A stretch of DNA of 64,000 nt from Candidatus Latescibacterota bacterium (GTDB lineage Bacteria; Latescibacterota; UBA2968): assembly GCA_965116885.1 (NCBI GenBank), contig OZ220741.1:1920001-1984000 (forward strand). Direction: 5' to 3'. A program made the translations under genes and the position numbers. Under the pieces are notes generated by a model, which worked only from the letters and a program-made list of their open reading frames with translations, did no database searches and had not been told where the DNA came from. Shown one piece after another: positions 2 to 27,545 of the stretch. How positions within the stretch are numbered: position 1 is the stretch's first letter; every line of letters starts with the position of its first letter.

Positions 2-3000
2 AACAGATTTCAGCACCCGCGCCTGGTACGCACCTTTGCCTGGGGTTTTGCCGAAGAGCGTCCCTATTTTACAATGGAATATTTGCCCGGGAAGACGTTG
101 GAAAAAATCATTGTCGATCATGCATTGTTGGGACAATTCCGAACTTCGTACTTTTTTGTTCTGATGCAACAAATTGTCGAGGGATTGGCATATATCCACG
201 CGCAGGGTGCGGTGCATCGCGATCTCAAGCCATCCAATATTATGGTTTTGGAAACCGAAGAGGGGATTGAGACCACGATTCTGGATCTGGGGTTGGCTAA
301 ATTCAGGCATTTGCATAGCGTGTCTATTACACAGACGGGCGCGACGCTTGGCACCGCAGAGTATATGTCGCCAGAACAGGGTAAAGGGTTGTGGGTGGAT
401 CATCGGTCAGATTTGTACTCATTGGGCGTGATTTTATACGAGATGTTCCTGGGCGCGCCGCCCTTTTCTGGGCAGAATCCAGTATCTGTTATTATGAAGC
501 ATATTCGAGAGTCACCGCCACCAATGGTTGAAGCCCCTGCCCAGACGCAACAAATTGTGTTGAAGTTGCTGGCAAAGGAGCCTGTTGATCGCTACCAGTC
601 GGCAGAGGAGGTGGTGCAGGCGTTAAATGGTGTGGCATCATCGAGTTTTGTGCTATCGGATGACGAGCAGCGCGATGTGCCTCTGAAAGTGATGCGGCCG
701 CAATTTGTCGGGCGCGAGTCCGAGATGAAGACGTTGCGCGCGATGTTGCGGGATGTACAGGCTGGCGAGCAGCGCGTGGTTCTGATCTCCGGTGAGGCGG
801 GGGTGGGTAAATCGAGAGTGGTCGAAGAACTGCTGGGCGATGCTTTGATCCACGATTTTCTGTGTTTGAAAGGTGCAGGGCGGGAAGAGGGTGGACAAAT
901 ATACGGTGCGTTGATTGATGCTTTTCGAGGGACGACGGATTTGGTGGCAGAATTGCCCGATTCATTAGAGACGGACAAGTTTTCTGTTATGGAGCGCTGG
1001 TTGCAGTTATTAAAGCGTCTGCGACAGAAACAGCCCATTGTGTTGTGTTTGGAAGATATTCAATGGCTTGATGAATTGTCATTGGAATTTTTGCAGTATG
1101 TGTTGCGCGATCCAGAACCGTGTCCTCTTTTGTTATGCCTGACCTGTCAAGGGTCTAACAGAGAATCCATTCCAAAGGAAATTGAGAATTTTATACACGG
1201 CAATGAATTTTCTGAAGCGATCCGGATTCAGTTGAAGAATCTACCGCGAGAAGAAGTGGGGTATTTAGCGGCGTCGATGTTTGGGGAGCGATCTATACCG
1301 CCGGATGCATTGCAACCCCTGTTCAGAGAAACGGGTGGGCAACCCCTGTTTGTCGTAGAGGCTGTGAGGACGTTGGTGCATGCCGATGTGGTTCGGCAAA
1401 ATGTGTACGGCGATTGGGAGTGGGGAGAATTTCCAGAAACTTTGTTGTCCGATGATATTTCAGAGGTTTTGAACAGGCGCATAACTGCTCTGTCGGCAGT
1501 GCAACGTCAGGTAATGGAATACGCATGTGTTTTTCTCAATGATTTTTCTTTTGAGTTATTGGCTGCTATCTGGCTCGGTGATGAGCTGGAGTTGGTGGAT
1601 GTGCTTGATAGCCTGATTGCAGAAGGGCTGTTAATTACTTATGGCGATGAAGAGCGGTATCGTTTTTCACAGGGTTTGTATCGGCGGGCAACTTACGACC
1701 GCATGCAAGATGTGCGGCGGCGGTTGTTGCATCGAGAAATTGGCAATGCTTTGGACAAGATGGAGGATGCAGAAGAATTGACAGAAGAATTGGCGGATCA
1801 TTTTGCCGCGGCGGGAGAACAAGATAAGGCTGTGAAATATATGCGTCTATCGGGCAAAAAAGCATTGAAAAAACACGCTTATCTCCGGGCATTGAGAAGG
1901 TTCGAGGCTGTGCAGCAGGCGGATGACGCTTTTGAATCGCATGCAGATGAGATCGACTTTTTGTGCGATTATGCAGATGTGCTGCGCTATTGTGGCCAGT
2001 ACAATAGGGCACTGGAATTTTTAGACGAGGCAAAGGCGTTATTGCCCGATGATCGGAATGATTTGAAGGCGCGTATTCTGAATCGTGAAGGTGGTATTCA
2101 CAGCGTACTTCAACACAGGGAAATTGCCGAAGAATATATGCTGAAGGCATTGCAACTTTATCGTGAACTCGGTGATTTCGACGGAGAAATCCAGGCTTTG
2201 GGAGGTTTGGCTTATTTGTGTGATGTATCTGGACGGCACGAAGAAGCGATTGTGTATATGCGTCGGGAAATAGAAAAACGTCATATGCTGGGAGATCCGC
2301 CAAAGGACGTTTTTATACAAGGTCGAGAAGGTCAGGCCGCATTGATGGGATTTCGATTTGAGACAGCTAAAGCACACCTGAAAGCGGCTGTAAAAACATC
2401 TCAGCAACTTGGACTTGAACACTATCGTATTGGGGCACTTAATTTACTTCAAAGAGTTTATTTTTATCTGGGTGATCTCCACCGTTCAGAAGCTGTTTGC
2501 AAGGAAGTCATTGGGGAATGGCAGAAGCGAGGGTTTATACACTGGGAGGCAGCGAATTTTTTATGGCTGGGAGAATTGGCACTGGAACGCGGTGATTTTG
2601 CCGGGGCATTGGAATATGCCGAGACCTCAATAGAGCGATTTTTGCAAACACCGCGAAAAGATTATATTTATCGCGCTTACGCTATTGCGGCAACGGCTGC
2701 TGCGAAAATGGGAGATACAGAAATAGCACTCGAATGGGCAGAAAAAGCCAGCGAAGGTACGCAACAAACATCGGGGATGTACACGGGTATATTGCCTTTG
2801 GTACATTGTGGTATTGGTGTTGCTTTGGCTCAAGCAGGGCGGATAACCGAGGCTGAAGAGGCTTTTGAGCAGGCGATTGAATGCCGGAGAGAATCCAAAG
2901 GTGACCATTGGGCGCGTGCATTGCTTATGGCAGGGGAGTTTTATCTCCAGCGCGATGATGTACCAAAAGCGCAAGCACATCTCAAAGCGGCAAAACAGGC

Positions 3001-4573
3001 GTTTAAAGAGATGGAGATGTCTTACTTTTTGGAGAAAACACAGGTGCTATTAAATCAATTGCGTGAATCTTCTCGCGGTGAGGATGCCGTATCCGGTTCT
3101 GGGATTTTATCTGTTGATCGCTGGCGCTTGCTTTACAATGTGAGCCGGGAGTTGACTACAGAGCGCGATGCCAAAGTATTATTAGATCGGATTTTGGGTA
3201 ATTTGTTAGCTGTTTATGCGGCAGAGCGAGTGCTTGTTGCGATTAAAAATGAGACCCCAAAAGGCTTTATAGTTGATGCTGTGCGCTACTACAATGTAGA
3301 AGCAGATGATGCAGAAGCACTGAGTCAGGGTATTATTCGTAGCGTTATTGAGACAAATGAACCCGTTTTGAGTATGGATGCCCAGACAGATAAAAGGCTC
3401 AATCAATATCAAAGCGTAATAGACTACCACCTCCGGTCTGTATTGTGTGTGCCCGTATTTCATTTTAACGAAGGTGTTATCGGTGCGTTATATGTAGATC
3501 ATCGCGGTATAGGCAACGCATTTTCTGAAGAAGATCAGACGTTTTTACAAGCATTTGCCAATCTGGTGGGAGTAGCGCTGGTCAATGCGAGGATGTATGC
3601 ACGAGTGGAAGAGAAAGCACAATATTTGCAGCAAGAGGTCGAAAAGCGGTACCAGCTTGGCGACATGGTCGGACAAAGTGATGCCATGCAGAGGATCTAC
3701 CAGCTGATAGAAACTGCTGCAAAGAGCGATATTCCCGTGCTTGTGCAGGGCGAAACAGGTACGGGCAAAGAATTGGCTGCGCGTGCCATACACTACAATA
3801 GCACACGCAAAGACCAGCGATTTTTGTCGCAAAATTGTGCCACACTCTCACCAGAGTTGTTGCAGAGTGAGTTGTTTGGGCACAAAAAAGGTGCGTTTAC
3901 TGGCGCGACTGAAGATCATAAGGGGATTTTTGAGGCTGCCAATGGAGGTACGGTTCTTCTCGATGAAATCGCCGATGCCCCACCGCAGTTGCAAAGGAGT
4001 TTGTTGCGAGTGTTGCAAGAAGGAGAGATTAGGCGTGTGGGAGAAACAGAGGATCGCGAAGTGGATGTGCGCATTATTGCAGCGACCAATCGAGACTTAA
4101 AAAAGGAAGTTGGGAAAGGCTCTTTCCGGGAAGATTTGTATTATCGGTTGCAGGGGATTCAGATCGATATGCCGCCTTTGCGAGAACGCATTGAAGATGT
4201 GCCAGTATTGGCCGAACATCTGCTCATTCGCGCAAAAGAAGATGCAAACAAGTCGGTTGGAGGGCTGACAGTGGGTACAATCAGGGTGCTCACAAGTTAT
4301 GACTGGCCGGGCAATGTGCGCGAGTTGAAGAACAAGATTCAACTTGCGGTGGCATTGGCAGAAGAAGAGGGTGATATTACGCCCGATTTGTTTTCAGAAA
4401 CTGTCGAGCAGGAATTTCAGGGCTATTTACAAGACCGCATCCAGGAGTATGAGAAACGGGTGATTCGAGACGCACTCGAGAAATACGAGGGCAATATTAC
4501 GCATACAGCTAAAGAACTGGGAATAACGCGCGTTGGTTTGCATAAAAAGATCAATCGTTTGGGGTTGAGATAG
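2..4573 (+). CDS. Ser/Thr protein kinase-AAA ATPase-TPR-GAF-sigma54 enhancer-binding protein fusion (5'-truncated by window edge)
   Basis: Frame is open from base 2 (NRFQHPRLVRTFAWGFAEERPYFTMEYL). Kinase motifs HRDLKPSN, DLGLA, GTAEYMSPE; Walker A GEAGVGKS; helical TPR-like middle; GAF region; sigma54 AAA+ motifs GETGTGKE, SELFGHKKGAFTGA, WPGNVREL; C-terminal Fis-type HTH. Confidence 0.95.
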   Translation, partial: NRFQHPRLVRTFAWGFAEERPYFTMEYLPGKTLEKIIVDHALLGQFRTSYFFVLMQQIVEGLAYIHAQGAVHRDLKPSNIMVLETEEGIETTILDLGLAKFRHLHSVSITQTGATLGTAEYMSPEQGKGLWVDHRSDLYSLGVILYEMFLGAPPFSGQNPVSVIMKHIRESPPPMVEAPAQTQQIVLKLLAKEPVDRYQSAEEVVQALNGVASSSFVLSDDEQRDVPLKVMRPQFVGRESEMKTLRAMLRDVQAGEQRVVLISGEAGVGKSRVVEELLGDALIHDFLCLKGAGREEGGQIYGALIDAFRGTTDLVAELPDSLETDKFSVMERWLQLLKRLRQKQPIVLCLEDIQWLDELSLEFLQYVLRDPEPCPLLLCLTCQGSNRESIPKEIENFIHGNEFSEAIRIQLKNLPREEVGYLAASMFGERSIPPDALQPLFRETGGQPLFVVEAVRTLVHADVVRQNVYGDWEWGEFPETLLSDDISEVLNRRITALSAVQRQVMEYACVFLNDFSFELLAAIWLGDELELVDVLDSLIAEGLLITYGDEERYRFSQGLYRRATYDRMQDVRRRLLHREIGNALDKMEDAEELTEELADHFAAAGEQDKAVKYMRLSGKKALKKHAYLRALRRFEAVQQADDAFESHADEIDFLCDYADVLRYCGQYNRALEFLDEAKALLPDDRNDLKARILNREGGIHSVLQHREIAEEYMLKALQLYRELGDFDGEIQALGGLAYLCDVSGRHEEAIVYMRREIEKRHMLGDPPKDVFIQGREGQAALMGFRFETAKAHLKAAVKTSQQLGLEHYRIGALNLLQRVYFYLGDLHRSEAVCKEVIGEWQKRGFIHWEAANFLWLGELALERGDFAGALEYAETSIERFLQTPRKDYIYRAYAIAATAAAKMGDTEIALEWAEKASEGTQQTSGMYTGILPLVHCGIGVALAQAGRITEAEEAFEQAIECRRESKGDHWARALLMAGEFYLQRDDVPKAQAHLKAAKQAFKEMEMSYFLEKTQVLLNQLRESSRGEDAVSGSGILSVDRWRLLYNVSRELTTERDAKVLLDRILGNLLAVYAAERVLVAIKNETPKGFIVDAVRYYNVEADDAEALSQGIIRSVIETNEPVLSMDAQTDKRLNQYQSVIDYHLRSVLCVPVFHFNEGVIGALYVDHRGIGNAFSEEDQTFLQAFANLVGVALVNARMYARVEEKAQYLQQEVEKRYQLGDMVGQSDAMQRIYQLIETAAKSDIPVLVQGETGTGKELAARAIHYNSTRKDQRFLSQNCATLSPELLQSELFGHKKGAFTGATEDHKGIFEAANGGTVLLDEIADAPPQLQRSLLRVLQEGEIRRVGETEDREVDVRIIAATNRDLKKEVGKGSFREDLYYRLQGIQIDMPPLRERIEDVPVLAEHLLIRAKEDANKSVGGLTVGTIRVLTSYDWPGNVRELKNKIQLAVALAEEEGDITPDLFSETVEQEFQGYLQDRIQEYEKRVIRDALEKYEGNITHTAKELGITRVGLHKKINRLGLR

Positions 4574-4585
4574 ACGTTGAATAGG

Positions 4586-4705
4586 TGTAAACCATCATTT
4601 ACAGTGGTGTATATCGACGTTTACACTTGTTTATTTTTATATGAATCAAGTATTTATGTGTAATTTTTGTGAATAAATGATTATAAATGTAAACTTGCGT
4701 TTACA
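4586..4705. promoter_or_regulatory. Three palindromic activator-binding boxes (TGTAAA-N6-TTTACA type) plus IHF-like site
   Basis: TGTAAA-CCATCA-TTTACA 4586-4603, TGTATA-TCGACG-TTTACA 4608-4625, TGTAAA-CTTGCG-TTTACA 4688-4705; AATCAAGTATTTA (WATCAA-N4-TTR) at 4644-4656. Confidence 0.8.
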
Positions 4706-4815: not shown

Positions 4816-4831
4816 AGGCACGGTTCTTGCA
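4816..4831 (+). promoter_or_regulatory. Sigma54 (-24/-12) promoter
   Basis: AGGCACGGTTCTTGCA: GG at 4817-4818 and GC at 4829-4830, exactly 10 nt apart; close to the TGGCACG-N4-TTGC consensus; lies downstream of activator boxes and a sigma54 activator gene. Confidence 0.85.
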
Positions 4832-4885
4832 ATATACAGGCGGATAGTGACCGTATTTTAGATTTTTGCATTGGAGGAGGGTAAA

Positions 4886-5068
4886 ATGGCGATTCGACGT
4901 AAGTTGACTCTGATCAATGGAACGATGGACAAAGAAGGTGGTATTCATACATATCAGGCGACGGACAGTTTTAAAATGGGCGGCTGTGAACCTGGCTGGA
5001 TAGCTGTTCCTCCCCTGCCCTTTCCCGATGACGATGATGATTGGGACGATTTTGATCGCACCGAGTAA
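4886..5068 (+). CDS. Putative RiPP precursor peptide, 60 aa
   Basis: GGAGGAGG RBS before ATG 4886; MAIRRKLTLING...GGCEPGWIAVPPLPFPDDDDDWDDFDRTE; directly upstream of a radical SAM/SPASM gene. Confidence 0.75.
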   Translation: MAIRRKLTLINGTMDKEGGIHTYQATDSFKMGGCEPGWIAVPPLPFPDDDDDWDDFDRTE

Positions 5069-5087: not shown

Positions 5088-6539
5088 GTGTCTGGCATGA
5101 TGTGCATTCAGAAATGCGATATGCATCTTTTTCAAACTGAAGAACAAAAACAGCCGATTGTCTATCAAGTTGAGACGGGTCTGTTTTTTGAACTGGACAC
5201 CCTTTTCCAGGCGATTTTAGAGTGTTGTGAGGGTTTGTCTGTTGACCAGGTTGTTCAGGTGCTGGCCGATCAATACGAGGCAGAGGAAATTGCCGAGGCT
5301 ATTGAGGAATTGGCGCAGGTGGGTTTGATTTCGGATGGTGCATTGCCTGTGGTATCCAATGTGCCGACGACAGAAGGGGTGGCAGCCTGTGGGGTTTCGC
5401 AGACAGATCGTTTGCAGGTGTCCTTGCACGTTTCGCATACATGCAATATTCAGTGTGCTTATTGCTTTGCCCATGGCGGGGATTACGGCGGTAAGGCGAT
5501 GCTGATGCAACCGGACGTTGCCGAGCAAGCCATACGATGGATTGTCACCGAGGCTCAGGTGTTCGGACGGTGCCAGATTGATTTTTTTGGCGGGGAGCCG
5601 CTTTTGAACTTTCCATTGATGCAGGAGCTTGTCCCATTTGCCAAATCCCTGGGCGCGCGATTGGGTGTACAGGTTGGTTTTGGCATTGTGACCAATGGCA
5701 CGTTGTTGACCGACGAGATGAAGCAGTTTTTGGTCGATGAAAAGTTTCAGATTAAGGTCAGCCTGGATGGGGGGCGTAAGACACAGGATCGCATTCGCAA
5801 GTTTCACAATGGTTCTGGGACTTATGATGTTGTGGCAAAGAATGTGGAGAAACTGACTGCTGAGGCACCTGAGCGCGTGTATTTGCAGGCTGTTATGACA
5901 GCGTATGATATGGATGAGGATCAGATTGCCGATGCGTTGCGTTCATTGGGTACTGATAACGCGCTTGTTGGTCCGGCTGTCGTTTCACCGGATGCGCCCT
6001 ATGCGATTCGGGAAGAACACATACCCGTTTTGAAGCAACAAATTTACAAGCGAAGCCGACGTGCGCTCAAAGCCATTCTGAATGGTGAAGAGAGTGAAGA
6101 GTTTGATCCGAGAATTCAAAAACTTTTGACGCGTGAAAAATCTTGTCATGGATGCTTGGGTGGTAAGCAGTATCTGGCTGTTGCGGCAGATGGGTCGATT
6201 TATTTTTGTTCGAGTTTGGCCGATGCGCCCGAGTTTAAGATGGGTGATGTGTTTGCGGGTATTGATCGCGAAAAGCAGCAGCATTTTGACGCGCAGTTCA
6301 ATGTGAATAATCGGCCTGAGTGCAAGACGTGCTGGGCGCGCAACTTGTGTGGTGGTGGATGTCTTTGGGATGCGCGGACGACGACGGGTGATCCGATGTC
6401 TCCCAACCCTGTTGCTTGTGAACAGACGCGCTATCGCTATGAACTGGCGATGGAGATGTGTATGGAGATTGCAGAAACGGATGCGTCTTTGTTACAGCGA
6501 CGATATGATCTGGAAATGGCATCTGAATCGGAGAAGTAA
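5088..6539 (+). CDS. Radical SAM/SPASM-domain peptide maturase with N-terminal PqqD/RRE-like region
   Basis: CNIQCAYC motif, FFGGEPLLN, SPASM cysteines (CHGCLGG...C...CKTCWARNLCGGGC...C); ~90-aa N-terminal extension. Start could be ATG 5097 or 5100. Confidence 0.92.
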   Translation: MSGMMCIQKCDMHLFQTEEQKQPIVYQVETGLFFELDTLFQAILECCEGLSVDQVVQVLADQYEAEEIAEAIEELAQVGLISDGALPVVSNVPTTEGVAACGVSQTDRLQVSLHVSHTCNIQCAYCFAHGGDYGGKAMLMQPDVAEQAIRWIVTEAQVFGRCQIDFFGGEPLLNFPLMQELVPFAKSLGARLGVQVGFGIVTNGTLLTDEMKQFLVDEKFQIKVSLDGGRKTQDRIRKFHNGSGTYDVVAKNVEKLTAEAPERVYLQAVMTAYDMDEDQIADALRSLGTDNALVGPAVVSPDAPYAIREEHIPVLKQQIYKRSRRALKAILNGEESEEFDPRIQKLLTREKSCHGCLGGKQYLAVAADGSIYFCSSLADAPEFKMGDVFAGIDREKQQHFDAQFNVNNRPECKTCWARNLCGGGCLWDARTTTGDPMSPNPVACEQTRYRYELAMEMCMEIAETDASLLQRRYDLEMASESEK

Positions 6540-14092: not shown

Positions 14093-14143
14093 AAAAAAGC
14101 TGCCGACAGACCCTAACAGGTCGAGTGTCGGCGGTAAGCAGCA
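14093..14143 (+). repeat. Structured leader element, copy 1 (partial)
   Basis: AAAAAA-GCTGCCGACA-GACCCTAACAGGTC-GAG-TGTCGGCGGT; homologous to the other four copies. Confidence 0.85.
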
Positions 14144-16768: not shown

Positions 16769-18139
16769 ATGAAAATTTGTGTGGTTGGTTTGGGCCATGT
16801 TGGCACTGTGAATATTGCCTACTTGCTTGAACGAGGTCATATCGTCACAGGCATGGATGTCTCCCAGGAGAGAATCCGCCATCTTTTTGCCGGTGAGCCT
16901 GAACCAGAACCCCGCGTAAGCGACCTGCTAAGTTCAGCACTTAGAAGTGGGAGGCTCCAGCTTTCGACTGACTACTTCAAAGCCGTTGAGGAGGCGAGTG
17001 TAGCGATCATCTGTGTAGGTACTCCGCGAGGTGAGAAAGACGGAATACCAAATCTGAGTTTTCTTTATCAGGCTGTAACGTCACTGGTTGAGATAGTCAA
17101 CAAGAAAAGAGGTACGTTTGACGTCGTTCTGCGCAGCACTGTTCCGCCCGGGACGACGCGTGATATCGTCTCTGGAGCCTTCGGGAATTTTGGCAATGTC
17201 TGGTATTACCCGGAGTTCTTGAGAGAAGGAAGCGCAATGGAGGACATGAATGATCCCCCGATTCGGATCGTTGGTGCTCCAAAGACTGGTTATTGTCAGC
17301 GCGTGTTAGATATTTACGGTGAGGCTGGGCCGGTGTACATTACCGAATACGAAATAGCTGAAATGGTAAAGTATGTATGCAATGCTTTTCATGCTATGAA
17401 GGTTACTTTCACGAATGAGATATCGAATATTTGTAGATATCTCGGGATAGACAGCAATAGAGTAATGGAAGTCGTGTGCTCAGACAACAAGCTCAATATG
17501 TCAAAAGCCTATATGAGGCCGGGATTCGCATTCGGAGGATCCTGTCTTCCAAAGGATCTTACAGCACTCCTGCGGCTATCGAACGGACGACAAGGACCTG
17601 AATTGCCTCTGCTGACCAATATCATCGTCAGTAATGATCTTCACATCAAGTCCACGGTCAGGAGGGTAAGGTCACTTGCCGTTCGAGGAACATTGGGTAT
17701 GTTGGGTTTGAGTTTTAAGCCCAATACAGGCGACTTGAGGGATAGTCCGTTCGTAAAACTCGGAAATATGCTCATCTCAGAAGGGTATCATGTGATCGCA
17801 TACGACCCGTCAGTGGAGTTGGGTTTCCTGGACGTAGAGCAGACTTATATTCAAAGCGATGCCAGAGAGATGTGGCAGGGACAATTGACCAGATCCCTCA
17901 ATTCGCTGTGTGAGTGTTCCCTGCTGTTGATCGCACATCCCATTTCCTCATTTCCTACACCGATTTTACCCATCTTGAAGGGCAAGCACGTTCTTGATTT
18001 GTGCAACGATCCTTTGCGAGAGCAAATCGCTGCTATTGCTGACTATGAAGGTGTGGGCTGGGAATGCCGTTCAGGATGTGTTCGGAATGTCAGCTTAGCA
18101 AAGGCTGAAGAAGCGTTAAAGAACACATCATATTCATAA
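16769..18139 (+). CDS. GDP-mannose/UDP-glucose 6-dehydrogenase family protein with chimeric C-terminus
   Basis: GLGHVG, RSTVPPGT, PEFLREG, GFAFGGSCLPKD; the last ~25 codons are homologous to the AraC gene. Confidence 0.92.
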   Translation: MKICVVGLGHVGTVNIAYLLERGHIVTGMDVSQERIRHLFAGEPEPEPRVSDLLSSALRSGRLQLSTDYFKAVEEASVAIICVGTPRGEKDGIPNLSFLYQAVTSLVEIVNKKRGTFDVVLRSTVPPGTTRDIVSGAFGNFGNVWYYPEFLREGSAMEDMNDPPIRIVGAPKTGYCQRVLDIYGEAGPVYITEYEIAEMVKYVCNAFHAMKVTFTNEISNICRYLGIDSNRVMEVVCSDNKLNMSKAYMRPGFAFGGSCLPKDLTALLRLSNGRQGPELPLLTNIIVSNDLHIKSTVRRVRSLAVRGTLGMLGLSFKPNTGDLRDSPFVKLGNMLISEGYHVIAYDPSVELGFLDVEQTYIQSDAREMWQGQLTRSLNSLCECSLLLIAHPISSFPTPILPILKGKHVLDLCNDPLREQIAAIADYEGVGWECRSGCVRNVSLAKAEEALKNTSYS

Positions 18140-18225
18140 AAAAGCCGCCGACAGACCCTGGCAAGTCGAATGTCGGCGGCAGACTGCAGTTCAAAGCTCA
18201 AGCATTTGGGAATGTGAGCTTGATG
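18140..18225 (+). repeat. Structured leader element, copy 2
   Basis: GCCGCCGACA-GACCCTGGCAAGTC-GAA-TGTCGGCGGC hairpin (18144-18180) plus AAGCTC-AA-GCATT-TGGG-AATGT-GAGCTT hairpin. Confidence 0.92.
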
Positions 18226-18248
18226 ATTTAAGATACCTCAGGTGCCCC

Positions 18249-19070: not shown

Positions 19071-19159
19071 TGAGTATGTCTTAAAAGGCTCGCGGCTTGT
19101 GTTCACGATTACACATTTGGTGGATAACGAGAAATTGAAGAGGTAAGCGTGCTATCATG

Positions 19160-19246
19160 AAAAAGCCGCCGACAGACCCTGGCAAGTCGAGTGTCGGCGG
19201 CAGACTGCAGTTCAAAGCTCAAGCATTTGGGAATGCGAGCTTAATG
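19160..19246 (+). repeat. Structured leader element, copy 3
   Basis: Near-identical to copy 2; first hairpin 19165-19201. Confidence 0.92.
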
Positions 19247-19304
19247 GTAAGATAGCTTTTGGTGGGTAGGTTGTCAACTATCGTGTAACTGGATATAAAA
19301 ATTT

Positions 19305-19598: not shown

Positions 19599-19636
19599 AT
19601 CAATACCATGAACTAAACACTGCGAGAGGTTTTTTG

Positions 19637-21541
19637 ATGGAGTATTTTTTTTCTGGGTTGACAGGTACAGGAACACGCGTAGGCGTCATTGATAGCGGTT
19701 TTAATGCAGGAAAAAAAAACGTGCATGTGTTGAATGGCACCAGTTTCTGTAATGGCGATTCCCAACCAGATTCAAAGTATAAAGATATGATAGGCCACGG
19801 CACAGCAGGTATTGGCGTCATCCACTCTAAAGCTCCCAATGCTGAATTTTTGCCTGTCAAAATTTTTGAGTCAGAGCTGATAGCGACAATGGATATTTTG
19901 TGCAAGGCGATTTACTGGTGTGTTGAACATCACTGTCACATTATCAATTTGAGTTTAGGCACTCTGGATGAGAGTAATAGCGATATTTTGAAGAATGCCT
20001 GTGATTTTGCACACAAACACCAGACGTTCATTGTTGCTGCGACATCAAATGATGGACAACCGAGTATTCCCGCGTCTTTTCCCAATGTCTTTGGCGTAGC
20101 AGGGGGAAAAGTTAATGGAAAATTTGATTACTTTTATGATCCGCACGAAAAAATACAATTTGTCGCGCGGGGTGATCGTCAACGCTTGGATTGGCTGGGA
20201 GGCAAACAGATATTTATGGGCGGGTCGAGCTTCGCGGCTCCGCATATTTCTGGCTTGATTGCTCTGATCATAGAGAAATATAATGGCATAACTTTCAACG
20301 ATCTGATAGAAATTTTGCAGAAACATTCCTTAACTCAATGTCCCAAGCTGGTAGATAGTAGCACTTATGCGATGAGCGAGATGCCCAGGTCCCGCTCAGA
20401 CGTTTCTATCCGCGATCTCAATAAGGCAAACACGCCAGGCTGGATAGAAGAGGCTGTTATTTTTCCATATAACAAAGAAATGCATGGATTGGTGCGGTTT
20501 CGGGAGTTATTGCCATTTAGACTTACAAGGGTAGTTGACGTTATTGGTAAAAGAACCATAGGCAAAGATTGTGGAAAGGTTATTGGTGGGTCCGAATCTA
20601 ATTTGATCATACAACAAAATTTGGAAGACTGCCTGCAATACGGCGATACGCTCGTTTTGGGTTATTTGGATGAAATTAGCCGGATTAAGAAACGCGATGT
20701 GTTACAAGAATCTCTGGAATTGGCATTGAAGCATAACAAGAATGTTTATAGTCTGAGTCCCATTGCAAATAAGCAATACGAAAGCATAAGCAAAGCATTT
20801 GAAGAAAAACATCTGTATTATGCAGCACCAACCATAGATTTTGCAACTTATGAGGTTTTGACCAAAACTTATGATTGGAGAAGCAGAAGCCAGAAACCTG
20901 TCGTGGGCATATTTGGGACAGGACCGCAGCAAGGCAAGTTCACTGCACAATTGGCACTGAGAAAACAATTACAAAAAATTGGCTATAAAGTTGGTCAATT
21001 GGGTACAGAACATCAATCTGCGTTATTTGATTTCGATTTTACATTTCCAAATGGATATGATGGGCATCAGAGCATCCAAATTCCCATGGATTTGCACATT
21101 CCACTTCTAAATTCCGCTATGGTCGGTATCGAACAATTAGACCCGGATATCATCGTTGTTGGCGGTCAGTCCGGTATTATACCTCATAACTTTTACGAAA
21201 AATCTCAGAGTTATACTTTGCCCTCATTGATCTTGCTTTTTGGAACCGTTCCCGATGCTTATGTCCTGCTCGTTAATTCTATCGACGAGCCTGAATTTAT
21301 ACAAGAAAATATCCGAGTATTAGAGAGCCTGGGAAAAGGAAAAGTGATTCTGCTTGTTTTTAGTGATAAGAAAAAAATTGTTAATAACACTGTTAATACA
21401 GTCGTCAACCAGCCGCTTTGTAGAGAGGAAATTTGTCAAACGATATTGACTTTGGAATCAACGCATTGCATTCCTGCGACTGAGATAATTAGCGCAGAAG
21501 GACAAAAAAAGATGGCCGATGTTGTTGTTGATTTTTTCTGA
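19637..21541 (+). CDS. S8 (subtilisin-like) peptidase fused to a DUF1611-like P-loop domain
   Basis: Catalytic triad motifs VIDSG, GHGT, GSSFAAPHISG; C-terminal half has GIFGTGPQQGKFTAQL, GTE and IIVVGGQSG; no signal peptide. Confidence 0.85.
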   Translation: MEYFFSGLTGTGTRVGVIDSGFNAGKKNVHVLNGTSFCNGDSQPDSKYKDMIGHGTAGIGVIHSKAPNAEFLPVKIFESELIATMDILCKAIYWCVEHHCHIINLSLGTLDESNSDILKNACDFAHKHQTFIVAATSNDGQPSIPASFPNVFGVAGGKVNGKFDYFYDPHEKIQFVARGDRQRLDWLGGKQIFMGGSSFAAPHISGLIALIIEKYNGITFNDLIEILQKHSLTQCPKLVDSSTYAMSEMPRSRSDVSIRDLNKANTPGWIEEAVIFPYNKEMHGLVRFRELLPFRLTRVVDVIGKRTIGKDCGKVIGGSESNLIIQQNLEDCLQYGDTLVLGYLDEISRIKKRDVLQESLELALKHNKNVYSLSPIANKQYESISKAFEEKHLYYAAPTIDFATYEVLTKTYDWRSRSQKPVVGIFGTGPQQGKFTAQLALRKQLQKIGYKVGQLGTEHQSALFDFDFTFPNGYDGHQSIQIPMDLHIPLLNSAMVGIEQLDPDIIVVGGQSGIIPHNFYEKSQSYTLPSLILLFGTVPDAYVLLVNSIDEPEFIQENIRVLESLGKGKVILLVFSDKKKIVNNTVNTVVNQPLCREEICQTILTLESTHCIPATEIISAEGQKKMADVVVDFF

Positions 21542-22295: not shown

Positions 22296-22339
22296 TATTT
22301 ACGAACAAGATGTGGCAGGGCAAAAAGATTGATATAAAT

Positions 22340-22422
22340 AGCCGCTGACAGGCCCTGGTGAGTCGAGTGTCGGTGGTAGGGCGCAACAGCAGTTCAAAGT
22401 CCAAGCATTTGAGAATATGAGC
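22340..22422 (+). repeat. Structured leader element, copy 4
   Basis: GCCGCTGACA-GGCCCTGGTGAGTC-GAG-TGTCGGTGGT (22341-22377) plus GCAGTTCAAAG...CAAGCATTTG segment. Confidence 0.88.
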
Positions 22423-22522
22423 ATGAGAGCCTGATTTTACTTGAAGCCCATCAAGTAAAGAGTCGCTTATACGCACGCAGGTCCATGCAGAATATGACTC
22501 AAAAAGTAAAGGAGGTGATACT

Positions 22523-22738
22523 ATGAAAGCATTGACCAAGCCGAAGAAGTTTCAGGCTATGTCTCGTATCTATGGATACGAGTTAGAATGGGATGTGGAC
22601 CCCCCGGCTGTCTGTGTCACAACAGGAAGTATCAATGTTAACGACGAGGATCCAGATAATCCTAAAGAGGAGATATACGTGTGCGAGGGTACGTGTGAAC
22701 CGTATTACGATTGCGACGTCGACAGCGACTGTGAATGA
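22523..22738 (+). CDS. Cys/acid-rich precursor peptide A (71 aa)
   Basis: Strong AAAGGAGGTGA RBS; leader MKALTKPKKFQAMSRIYGYEL shared with peptide B; core has 5 Cys. Confidence 0.88.
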   Translation: MKALTKPKKFQAMSRIYGYELEWDVDPPAVCVTTGSINVNDEDPDNPKEEIYVCEGTCEPYYDCDVDSDCE

Positions 22739-22823
22739 CCTCAATTATCAATGCCGGCTCATTTTGGTGTGAAGAGGTATTCGATTGCAACGAATGCTGA
22801 TCCGTGGCTGTCGTTTAAAAAGC

Positions 22824-22910
22824 GAGCTTGATGGGCTTCAAGTTTGGATCGGTGTTCTCGGTAAACAGGCTTGGAACACCGATCCAACGATAAATAATAA
22901 GGATTATCAT
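22824..22910 (+). repeat. Conserved 3' structured element after precursor A
   Basis: GCTTGA-TGGGCT-TCAAGT hairpin, then a 14-bp stem TTGGATCGGTGTTC/GAACACCGATCCAA; paralogous to 27321-27407. Confidence 0.88.
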
Positions 22911-22912
22911 TA

Positions 22913-24019
22913 ATGAAGAAAAAAAAATTATTGGTTTCAGTGGAGTGGCTAACACTCCTCTTTCTCATCCTTGGAGGTTGCGAAAAGAGTGCGGTTGAAA
23001 ACCAGAAAGCGGTTGAAAATCAGAAAGATGCAATCGTTCTCGATACGCAAACACAAGGAACCCATCTCTCATTGGTTGGTGATATCACGCTGGAGCTCCC
23101 AGAGGCTGGCCCCGCACTCGGTAGGGTAGGTTCTGTGACGATTGCGGAGGACTATATCATAATTTTAGATAACCTGAGAAAAAGTGTTGAAGTTTTTGAC
23201 AGAGAGGGAAACTACAAGTGGCCTATTGGCAGTCGGGGGGACGGAGTAGGCCAGTACAAGATACCGAGCGGGTCTGCTATTATACCCAATACCGACCAAA
23301 TACTGATCTACGATGGAGGTCCCATAAAAATTCTTCGTTTCTCACTCAAAGGTGAATTTATAGGGCGGGTAAGGCTATCTGAGAGACGCGCCATTAATCG
23401 TATGGTGGTTTCTGAAGGTCACAATTTCATTCATACTTATGTTGATAGAAACAGAAACGGTATGCTTTGTGTAACTTCTCTGGACACAGGTGAAGACCTC
23501 GCTAAGTTCAAAGTCTGCGAGCCTGAATATAGACGCCTATTTTTTGCTTTTAAGCGTTTTCAAGGGCTTGCTTATGACGAAGCGCGAAAAATCATATACT
23601 TTGTCCTACCGTGGGGTGGTGAGGTTGTGCGGATTGATTTGGCAACGCAGGAGTTTCTCCCTTCTCTAACTATAAATCATCCCAAATTTATCAGTCTTAA
23701 ATTAGAAGAGGACAAAACTGCAAAAAAATTATTAAAAACTAAGTTTAGTAGATTGTACGGCATGTCTCTTCTGTCTTCGGGAGATGTTTTACTCAGGTAC
23801 CTGTTCAGGGATTCATCAAACAGTACTGCGTTTATACTTTTTTCTGACCTGAGCGTGGAGCCTTATGCCCAAGAGATGAAAAATGAACTGAGATACAATA
23901 GTTTCACTTCTCAGGGGATGTCTATATATGAGTATTTATCGCCTGCCGATGACGAGGATACGAATGGTAAGATTCGTATCTATCGTCTTATCGATACTCC
24001 TGAATCCCCTACCGGCTAA
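22913..24019 (+). CDS. Beta-propeller (NHL/TolB-like) lipoprotein
   Basis: Lipobox-like LILGGC after a basic/hydrophobic N-terminus; VFDREGNYKWPIGSRGDGVGQY repeat pattern; AVENQK tandem duplication at 22991-23026. Confidence 0.75.
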   Translation: MKKKKLLVSVEWLTLLFLILGGCEKSAVENQKAVENQKDAIVLDTQTQGTHLSLVGDITLELPEAGPALGRVGSVTIAEDYIIILDNLRKSVEVFDREGNYKWPIGSRGDGVGQYKIPSGSAIIPNTDQILIYDGGPIKILRFSLKGEFIGRVRLSERRAINRMVVSEGHNFIHTYVDRNRNGMLCVTSLDTGEDLAKFKVCEPEYRRLFFAFKRFQGLAYDEARKIIYFVLPWGGEVVRIDLATQEFLPSLTINHPKFISLKLEEDKTAKKLLKTKFSRLYGMSLLSSGDVLLRYLFRDSSNSTAFILFSDLSVEPYAQEMKNELRYNSFTSQGMSIYEYLSPADDEDTNGKIRIYRLIDTPESPTG

Positions 24020-26867: not shown

Positions 26868-26880
26868 AGTATTCCCTGGC

Positions 26881-26979
26881 AAAAGCCGCCGACAGACCCT
26901 GGCGAGTCGAGTGTCGGTGGTAGCCCCCAGGGGTAGGTTGTAGTAGCAGTTCAAAGCGCAAGCATTTGGGAATGTGAGC
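26881..26979 (+). repeat. Structured leader element, copy 5
   Basis: GCCGCCGACA-GACCCTGGCGAGTC-GAG-TGTCGGTGGT (26885-26921), a short insertion, then the second conserved segment. Confidence 0.9.
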
Positions 26980-27083
26980 GTGAGAGCATGCATGGTTTTA
27001 CTTGAAGCCCATCAAGTAAGGTGCCTCTTATATGCACGCATATTCATGCAGGATATGACTGAAAAAGTAAAGGAGGTGATACT

Positions 27084-27284
27084 ATGAAAGCTTTGACCAA
27101 GCCGGAGAAGTTTCGATCTATGTCTCGTATCTATGGATATGAGCTACCAGATGATATAATAGGATATCAATGTGAATTTCAAGGCTATACCGATATTGTC
27201 GTAGATGGTGTGGTCGTTGGTCAAACGGAAGATTGGGACTGCGTGAGTGTAGTTGATGAGATATTCGATTGCGACGGCTGCTAA
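27084..27284 (+). CDS. Cys/acid-rich precursor peptide B (66 aa)
   Basis: Same RBS and leader (MKALTKPEKFRSMSRIYGYEL) as peptide A; core has 4 Cys and ends DCDGC. Confidence 0.88.
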   Translation: MKALTKPEKFRSMSRIYGYELPDDIIGYQCEFQGYTDIVVDGVVVGQTEDWDCVSVVDEIFDCDGC

Positions 27285-27320
27285 TCCGTGGCTCTCGTTG
27301 AAAAACTAAGGTGTGCTACT

Positions 27321-27407
27321 GAGCTTGATGGGTTTCAAGTTTGGATCGGTGTTCTCGGTAAACAGGCTGGGGATACCGATCCAACGATAATAGTAAGGAT
27401 TATCATT
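27321..27407 (+). repeat. Conserved 3' structured element after precursor B
   Basis: Paralog of 22824-22910; the stem substitutions create G-U pairs. Confidence 0.88.
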
Positions 27408-27545
27408 GGGGATGGCGTAGGCCAGTTGAAGATTGCGATATTCTCGTATCGGAACCGTGTCTTTTATGATACATCAAAAGGACAATCCAATGAACAAGGC
27501 GATATGTAGTTGGCCTGAATTTGATATCGAAGAAGAATTGAACAG

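Follow-up and report, generated by a model that had tools for sequence, protein, structure and literature searches.

Complementary untranslated regions bracket the precursor genes of a peptide-maturation locus in Candidatus Latescibacterota

Pairing between the untranslated regions (UTRs) at the 5′ end and the 3′ end of a single bacterial message is known from few cases. The relevant passages of one review name hbs, icaR and RNAIII, and state that 3′UTRs of this kind are usually not conserved between species, that of hbs not among close relatives (PMC7821165). In the hbs mRNA of Bacillus subtilis, as given in the excerpts of the original study used here, 14 nt beside a 5′ hairpin pair with 14 nt just before the terminator (−19 kcal/mol), and compensatory mutants proved that this pairing restrains cleavage by RNase Y (Braun, Durand and Condon 2017, PMC5737220). 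In icaR of Staphylococcus aureus, according to the same passages of the review, a UCCCC stretch of the 3′UTR pairs with the ribosome-binding site, blocks translation and makes a substrate for RNase III (PMC7821165). A related arrangement is the cip-cel operon of Ruminiclostridium cellulolyticum where, in the portion of the account cited, intergenic stem-loops act as cleavage signals, protect both ends of the processed segments and so lead to unequal product amounts from a single transcription unit (PMC10311766). In the stretch of DNA analysed here (the window, 64 kb; contig OZ220741.1, positions 1,920,001–1,984,000, assembly GCA_965116885.1), which comes from an uncultured Candidatus Latescibacterota bacterium, two small precursor genes, A and B, are each bracketed by a pair of complementary arms. 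The element is probably a long-range interaction of the bacterial 5′/3′-UTR type, which is a functional class and not a homology family, and what is new is a pairing kept across species by compensatory changes. Among the titles listed by one search of one literature collection, none describes such a bracket around a precursor gene. We hold it moderately probable that the arms form a conserved intramolecular RNA duplex that joins the 5′UTR and 3′UTR of the precursor message and sets its processing or stability.

Paired arms of the two precursor genes

The open reading frames (ORFs) of precursors A and B specify 71 aa and 66 aa, and have the leader MKALTKPxKFxxMSRIYGYEL in common. The leader is conserved and the core hypervariable, the cores of A and B being unrelated in sequence and both rich in Cys, Asp and Glu. 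The features of the two units are as follows.

22436–22459, + strand: 5′ arm of unit A; its core (22439–22455) pairs with 22827–22843, and alone it folds as a 9-bp hairpin with the loop AGCCCA
22463–22468, + strand: possible inner-helix strand of unit A, TCGCTT with AAGCGA at 22820–22825, from duplex prediction only
22508–22738, + strand: Shine-Dalgarno sequence and ORF of precursor A; strong Shine-Dalgarno AAAGGAGGTGATA at 22508, ORF at 22523–22738 (71 aa)
22827–22843, + strand: 3′ arm of unit A, 88 nt past the stop codon
22844–22887, + strand: hairpin P2 of unit A; 14-bp stem, conserved 16-nt loop, −27.3 kcal/mol
27000–27016, + strand: 5′ arm of unit B, with the same sequence as in unit A
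27038–27043, + strand: inner-helix 5′ strand of unit B (alignment columns 62–67), pairing with GTGTGC at 27311–27316 with two U-G pairs
27069–27284, + strand: Shine-Dalgarno sequence and ORF of precursor B; ORF at 27084–27284 (66 aa)
27311–27340, + strand: inner-helix 3′ strand (27311–27316) and 3′ arm (27324–27340) of unit B
27341–27384, + strand: hairpin P2 of unit B, followed by a propeller-gene remnant at 27408–27438

The sequence of unit A reads TTTACTTGAAGCCCATCAAGTAAA at 22436–22459 and GCTTGATGGGCTTCAAGT at 22826–22843. A repeat search returned 22439–22455 and 22827–22843 as an inverted repeat of 17 nt, 100% complementary and with a spacing of 371 nt, which bears out the exact reverse complement reported in a preliminary description of the window. 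A complementarity of the hbs type, with at least ~14 nt shared between the 5′UTR and 3′UTR of one cistron, is therefore present. The local hairpin of the 5′ arm of A has a predicted energy of −8.2 kcal/mol and its duplex with the 3′ arm −32.3 kcal/mol. P2 adjoins the 3′ arm directly (22844–22857 with 22874–22887, 14 nt, 100% complementary, 16 nt between), and the gene for a DUF5128 propeller protein starts 25 nt further on. The preliminary description had also pointed to a recurrence of the arms at 27000–27016 and 27324–27340, and to a 14-bp stem after each 3′ arm, with all differences in B compatible with G-U pairing. This holds: the arms of B have one mismatch, a G-T cell (G-U in RNA) at column 27/648 inside the arm centre, and the two differences in the P2 stem of B are G-T and T-G (columns 666/689 and 668/687). 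The TCGCTT/AAGCGA pairing of unit A, as predicted, appears to be specific to that unit, where it would replace a GCACAC/GTGTGC helix of the other nine units described below.

Chance is an unlikely origin of this complementarity. Allowing up to three mismatches, the arm motif has four matches in the 64 kb where 0.17 are expected, and none of 100 shuffled sequences reached four. With at most one mismatch, the whole 5.56-Mb genome contains only the four arms of A and B, so the arms do not behave as a dispersed repeat of the repetitive extragenic palindromic (REP) or miniature inverted-repeat transposable element (MITE) kind. Four more matches appear at two mismatches, which is the level of a reversed-pattern control (8 vs 8), and a BLAST search of the whole unit against the genome gave matches at this locus only. 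Unit B is, however, a segmental duplicate of A (5′UTR and leader 88% identical over 157 nt; 3′ flank 94% over 70 nt; core diverged), so its recurrence is no independent evidence, which has to come from other species.

Unit-like DNA was found in nine of 20 other genomes of the genus, in none of four genomes from other genera of the family and in none of 16 from a second family; the part from arm to P2 alone is present in seven of the 20. Ten complete units from nine Latescibacterota genomes, including the further record L027, were aligned with MAFFT (alignment A1). The 330–560 nt between the arms are unalignable, and the arms are retained. Complementarity, which might have been missing from homologous loci, is present in all ten units together with compensatory changes, as expected of the 5′–3′ pairing around a looped-out precursor ORF that had been proposed. 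The structure scored on A1 comprised four outer pairs, 12 core pairs, six inner pairs (GCACAC/GTGTGC) and the 14-bp P2 stem; one pair beside an indel was excluded, as MAFFT had placed the gap differently on the two sides. Standard pairs fill 91.7% of the 349 cells, compared with 21–38% when the partners are slid by one to three columns, and by helix the paired cells amount to 96.7% (core), 98.1% (inner), 90.4% (P2) and 72.5% (the outer four pairs). Seven pairs are changed on both sides (shuffled mean 3.8; seven reached in 9 of 500 shuffles), P2 having four pairs altered in this way, and the covariation score is 0.201 compared with 0.165 after shuffling (one of 500 shuffles as high); given few events and related units, these shuffle counts are not probabilities.

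Individual columns illustrate the pattern. Column 30/645 is evenly split between C-G and U-A (five units each), while column 32/643 is U-A in eight, U-G in G002 and C-G in G006. A 1-nt indel affects both arms in G000 only, an extra A in the 5′ arm occurring with an extra T in the 3′ arm. The C-G state of G006 breaks the closing pair of the local 5′ hairpin and keeps the long-range pair, and so favours the duplex over two separate hairpins. When arms of all units were paired all-against-all, cognate duplexes had a mean energy of −26.4 kcal/mol and non-cognate ones −22.3 kcal/mol (2 of 20,000 permutations as good). Decay is seen in arms left without a partner. In G006 the orphan 3′ arm pairs at −8.3 kcal/mol with a 5′ arm of the same genome and at −9.0 kcal/mol with the orphan 5′ arm, and in G002 the orphan 3′ arm gives −17.1 kcal/mol, whereas the complete units of these genomes reach −25.3 and −22.7 kcal/mol. 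A further locus, in G001 (L012, about 1200–1600), is a 5′-truncated precursor pseudogene that lacks the ribosome-binding site, start codon and 5′ arm and keeps a leader remnant, the core, P2 and a still-intact 3′ arm; the loss of its 5′ arm is read as recent.

Pattern searches added no units. The ribosome-binding site and start pattern gave at least 120 loci in a metagenome scan, where it proved generic, with no new unit among the loci screened by BLAST, and in genome contigs it returned three units, all already known. A pattern of inner helix plus 3′ arm gave 10 loci in the genome contigs, eight of them known units. Two candidates, L294 and L299, were rejected as chance matches within unrelated coding DNA. 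Distant homologues of the protease/TIGR04066 gene in L031 (Cytophagia-labelled), L032 (KSB1) and L034 (another Latescibacterota genus) have no recognisable adjacent precursor, and so are unusable as an independent test.

Duplex, hairpins and rival explanations

Thermodynamically, the duplex dominates. Partition-function folds of whole units place the core helix (ten core pairs) in the minimum-energy structure of all ten, with a mean core pair probability of ~1.0 in nine and 0.87 in G013; the fold z-scores of the two window units are −3.8 and −5.3. The arm–arm duplex has −20.9 to −32.3 kcal/mol in all ten units. Folded alone, the 5′ arm is a hairpin in every unit (−3.5 to −8.5 kcal/mol), while the 3′ arm gives a hairpin with the complementary loop in three (G000A, G000B, L027), another small hairpin in three and none in four. 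The kissing hairpins of the preliminary description are thus upheld on the 5′ side and fail on the 3′ side in most units. With the 3′ hairpin in three units and the duplex in ten, the conserved feature is an extended 5′UTR–3′UTR duplex rather than a kissing pair, for which both hairpins would be conserved with complementary loops; the predicted folds of this genome fit the kissing picture, but it is not what is conserved.

The pattern of mismatches bears on the strand. If symmetry of the DNA were alone at work, transitions would be expected to yield G-U and A-C cells equally. Counted as cells and not as evolutionary events, G-U exceeds A-C by 9:0 in the core, 5:1 in the inner helix and 14:4 in P2 (28:5 together), with 1:5 in the outer pairs. 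This excess in the conserved helices points to RNA read from the sense strand, and the sense-strand duplex is the more stable in seven of the ten units. Across the 3′ arm and P2, every reading frame is closed in at least one unit, and the length differences are not multiples of three, which rules out coding as the explanation for the conservation of this part.

Two side observations concern the hairpins. An ATG lies 8 nt before the 5′ arm (A1 columns 7–9; 26992–26994 in B) and opens a frame across the arm in eight of the ten units. The frame has 8–10 codons in five units and 29–31 codons ending on the precursor start in two, is fused to the precursor in one and is missing in G000A and G017b. 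It is inconsistent as a gene; ribosomes starting there would unwind the 5′ arm. The P2 loop (22858–22873, TCGGTAAACAGGCTTG) is nearly as conserved across species as the P2 stem, which suggests a binding site or tertiary contact and not a plain stabilising hairpin.

Two further readings involve hairpins. They may be a functionless relic, a small hairpin duplicated in inverted orientation in the ancestor of the cluster and kept through short divergence time, which the single genus-level group, the descent of B from A and the few independent events would allow. This is doubtful, as the arms were kept while the sequence between them became unalignable, changes on both sides restore pairing, cognate arms outpair non-cognate ones and orphan arms decay. 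It is unlikely that two hairpins, through loop–loop kissing or by switching with the duplex, control translation of the precursor. For G000A, G000B and L027, folding predicts the two local hairpins with fully complementary loops of 5–6 nt, the 5′ hairpin is general, and the upstream ATG frame (8/10) could let ribosomes open the arm; but a 3′ hairpin with the complementary loop is confined to those three units, the others folding differently (three) or not at all (four), and the upstream frame is absent from G000A and G017b and of inconsistent length elsewhere. The arms are, moreover, clear of the Shine-Dalgarno sequence and start codon, and predicted Shine-Dalgarno accessibility ranges from 0.06 to 0.56 among units, which also tells against the translation switch of the type I toxin mRNA kind that had been suggested earlier.

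The remaining readings place the function in the DNA. Inverted repeats that serve as tyrosine-recombinase-like sites in opposite orientations, inverting or exchanging the precursor cassette (phase variation, shuffling), would account for several features: TTTACTTGA-AGCCCA-TCAAGTAAA has the form of inverted half-sites around an asymmetric centre of 5–6 bp, the two sites have covarying centres, a requirement of strand exchange, and a hypervariable core lies between conserved flanks, with a relic of an older C-terminus after the stop codon of A. Such an exchangeable cassette, raised in the preliminary description, is nevertheless quite improbable. The 46 ORFs of at least 110 aa in the 64 kb include no integrase, resolvase or invertase family (a distant recombinase is possible), and the precursor has one orientation relative to the protease gene in all ten units, not the two expected of an inverton. 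Several units have lost the outer half-site of the 3′ arm or carry it in decayed form, the mismatch of copy B falls within the centre, and the genome has no further sites; the G-U excess is strand-specific, and the pairing extends to a separate inner helix that itself contains G-U pairs. Integron attC sites would be another conceivable identity of the arms, which is likewise disfavoured; no integrase was found in the window. Palindromic operators (ACTTGA-N5/6-TCAAGT) for a dimeric DNA-binding regulator are very improbable: the half-sites are palindromic, and the window encodes a response regulator with an AraC-type domain and a sigma-54 activator, but a symmetric operator has no need of centres that are reverse-complementary in all ten units with covariation, the half-sites of the 3′ arm decay, and no such site occurs elsewhere in the genome. 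Taken together, the G-U excess, sense-strand stability, broken frames, missing recombinase, loss of 3′ half-sites and centre mismatch of B make recombination sites, operators or dispersed palindromes unlikely.

For the favoured reading, an RNA duplex between the two UTRs, the layout is a core of 14–17 bp, a 6-bp inner helix in nine of the ten units and P2 adjoining on the 3′ side, and nothing but the ribosome-binding site and the small ORF lies inside the duplex. Set beside the approximately two helical turns of an RNase III stalk, this gives the 14–17 bp of the core plus 6 bp across an internal loop, with outer pairing at 72.5%. Several points count against this reading. The conserved core is short for a classical RNase III site. 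All homologous units come from one genus-level group, the shuffle control carries no correction for their relatedness, and the C-G/U-A switch at column 30/645 requires only one to three changes on a tree built from the flanks, so that independent events are few. The outermost four pairs are poorly kept, with five A-C cells, and a coaxial stack of 31 bp through arms and P2, which holds for G000 and L027, therefore does not extend to every unit; internal mismatches occur in G013 (C-U) and G011 (G-G). At neither end of the unit does a signal resembling a promoter or terminator exceed chance level. After P2 comes CGATAAATAATAAGG, which lacks the U-tract of an intrinsic terminator, and P2 is not listed as terminator-like.

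Control of precursor mRNA processing or stability by the duplex is inferred, and so are the RNase III excision and message stabilisation that had been envisaged. The genome encodes RNase III (a single PF14622 match above cut-off, 130 bits), two RNase Y paralogues and RNase E/G. Both RNase Y paralogues are full-length and above the family cut-off in this one genome (G000:C1:5387148–5388674 and 2776118–2777650). In the proposed mechanism, the invariant GC-rich loop of the 5′ hairpin (GCCCA) would act as nucleation point for the 3′ arm. The closed stalk would then limit endonuclease access to conserved AU-rich single strands, GGUUUUAC before the 5′ arm and CGAUAAUAG after P2, and keep the two ends of the precursor message hidden. 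Levels of precursor mRNA would thereby be uncoupled from those of the maturation-enzyme genes in the same row, and precursor RNA could build up relative to them. P2 might cap the precursor message at its 3′ end or the downstream one at its 5′ end, or serve in both ways. A more specific form of the idea, which we offer tentatively and consider possible at best, is an 'expression capsule' for hypervariable cores made up of the duplex, inner helix and P2, in which an endonuclease cut at the stalk would free, from the polycistronic RNA, an end-paired precursor message that lasts longer than the messages for the enzymes. The short frame at the 5′ arm (eight of ten units) could let ribosomes open the stalk, tying message lifetime to translation; as the expression signals all lie in the conserved flanks, any new core placed between them would be expressed at once. 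The gene inside the bracket encodes the substrate of a peptide-maturation cluster, in which far more message is needed for the substrate than for the enzymes. If the duplex has this role, the locus would provide a comparative case of message closure setting stoichiometry in natural-product operons, and a compact design for the expression of peptide libraries.

Gene row, duplication and leader element

Family searches place the precursors in a row of genes that specify a sulfotransferase, an acyl-carrier protein (ACP), a redoxin, the DUF5128 propeller protein, an ABC exporter, a rhodanese, a MauE protein and a subtilisin fused to a TIGR04066/DUF1611 peptide-maturation domain. The precursor A ORF itself has no Pfam or NCBIfam match, and the whole 64-kb window has no match at gathering score to any of 4227 Rfam families. 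The protease domain (gene 19634–21541) resembles QhpE (E = 1e-41, under the family cut-off). A radical SAM/SPASM enzyme (5088–6536) resembles the quinohemoprotein amine dehydrogenase maturase (E = 6e-75), its likeness to the SCIFF and QhpD maturases again being under their cut-offs. Thioether cross-links from Cys to Asp or Glu are presumably a lead for the chemistry of the precursors, the cores of which are rich in these residues. A 65-aa ORF (4871–5068) lies upstream of the radical SAM gene; a second bracketed peptide gene was sought there, and this ORF has no flanking inverted repeat. Before it are a 1499-aa sigma-54 activator with kinase, TPR and GAF domains (74–4570), then three TGTAAAC-N4-GTTTACA palindromes (4586–4705) and a near-consensus sigma-54 promoter, GGCACGGTTCTTGCA, at 4817–4833.

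The history of the duplication has left traces on both sides of the cores. After unit B, a 31-nt remnant (27408–27438) is 81% identical to 23237–23267 in the interior of the DUF5128 propeller gene, which indicates that precursor and propeller gene were duplicated together to give B, with a deletion afterwards. Past the stop codon of precursor A (22771–22800), another frame reads ...EEVFDCNEC before a stop, and this segment is homologous to the coding C-terminus of precursor B (27254–27284; 85% over 52 nt). From this similarity, it seems that A underwent replacement or a frameshift of its core, with the old C-terminus left as 3′UTR.

A further element of ~90 nt precedes the arms of both window units, and its copy at unit A is as follows.

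22337–22432, + strand: leader element of unit A (third of the four window copies), immediately 5′ of the arm; context for the 5′ region of the transcript and outside the duplex

The four copies (18134–18230, 19155–19251, 22331–22433 and 26875–26990, with a partial copy at 14095–14136) stand ahead of the sulfotransferase gene, the ACP gene and both precursors. The element consists of a 10-bp stem with a 3-bp extension, an inserted hairpin that varies, and another hairpin region of high conservation. Its 17 copies from nine sources align well and show a few compensatory changes, and have no Rfam match. It is missing upstream of three of the ten units (G005, G017b, G006) and is thus separable from the arms; a cis-regulatory leader RNA and a promoter region are both possible identities. 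A sigma-54 promoter within it was considered and rejected, as the GG has GT instead of GC at the proper distance behind it and is itself disrupted in two species.

Comparison with known systems

The closest likeness is to hbs. As far as the cited passages describe that mRNA, both cases have ~14 nt of complementarity next to a 5′ hairpin with the 3′ partner just upstream of a further hairpin, in hbs the terminal one, and both enclose a small ORF with a strong Shine-Dalgarno sequence, that of hbs being highly expressed. The two are unrelated in sequence, and hbs is monocistronic whereas the precursors belong to a long gene row. The hairpin after the 3′ arm lacks a U-tract here, and the 5′ arm is itself a hairpin. 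The pairing of the precursor units is conserved with covariation across species, unlike the hbs 3′UTR in the sources cited.

Within what the cited review passages cover, icaR and RNAIII/hld likewise have intramolecular pairing between 5′UTR and 3′UTR. Whereas the icaR pairing takes in the ribosome-binding site, at this locus the Shine-Dalgarno sequence is outside the arms, which are placed 67 nt upstream of the start codon. In the cip-cel operon, as described in the portion cited, each end of a segment carries a local stem-loop, while here the two ends pair across the cistron. The sequences flanking a functional RNA also pair into a stalk in the RNase III stalks of 16S and 23S rRNA and in the fold-back of hok. 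The rRNA stalks are longer and their cleavage is established, the stalk-like enclosure being common to both; the hok pairing controls a toxin mRNA with an antisense RNA as its partner, whereas at the precursor locus neither a toxin-like peptide nor an antisense partner is evident.
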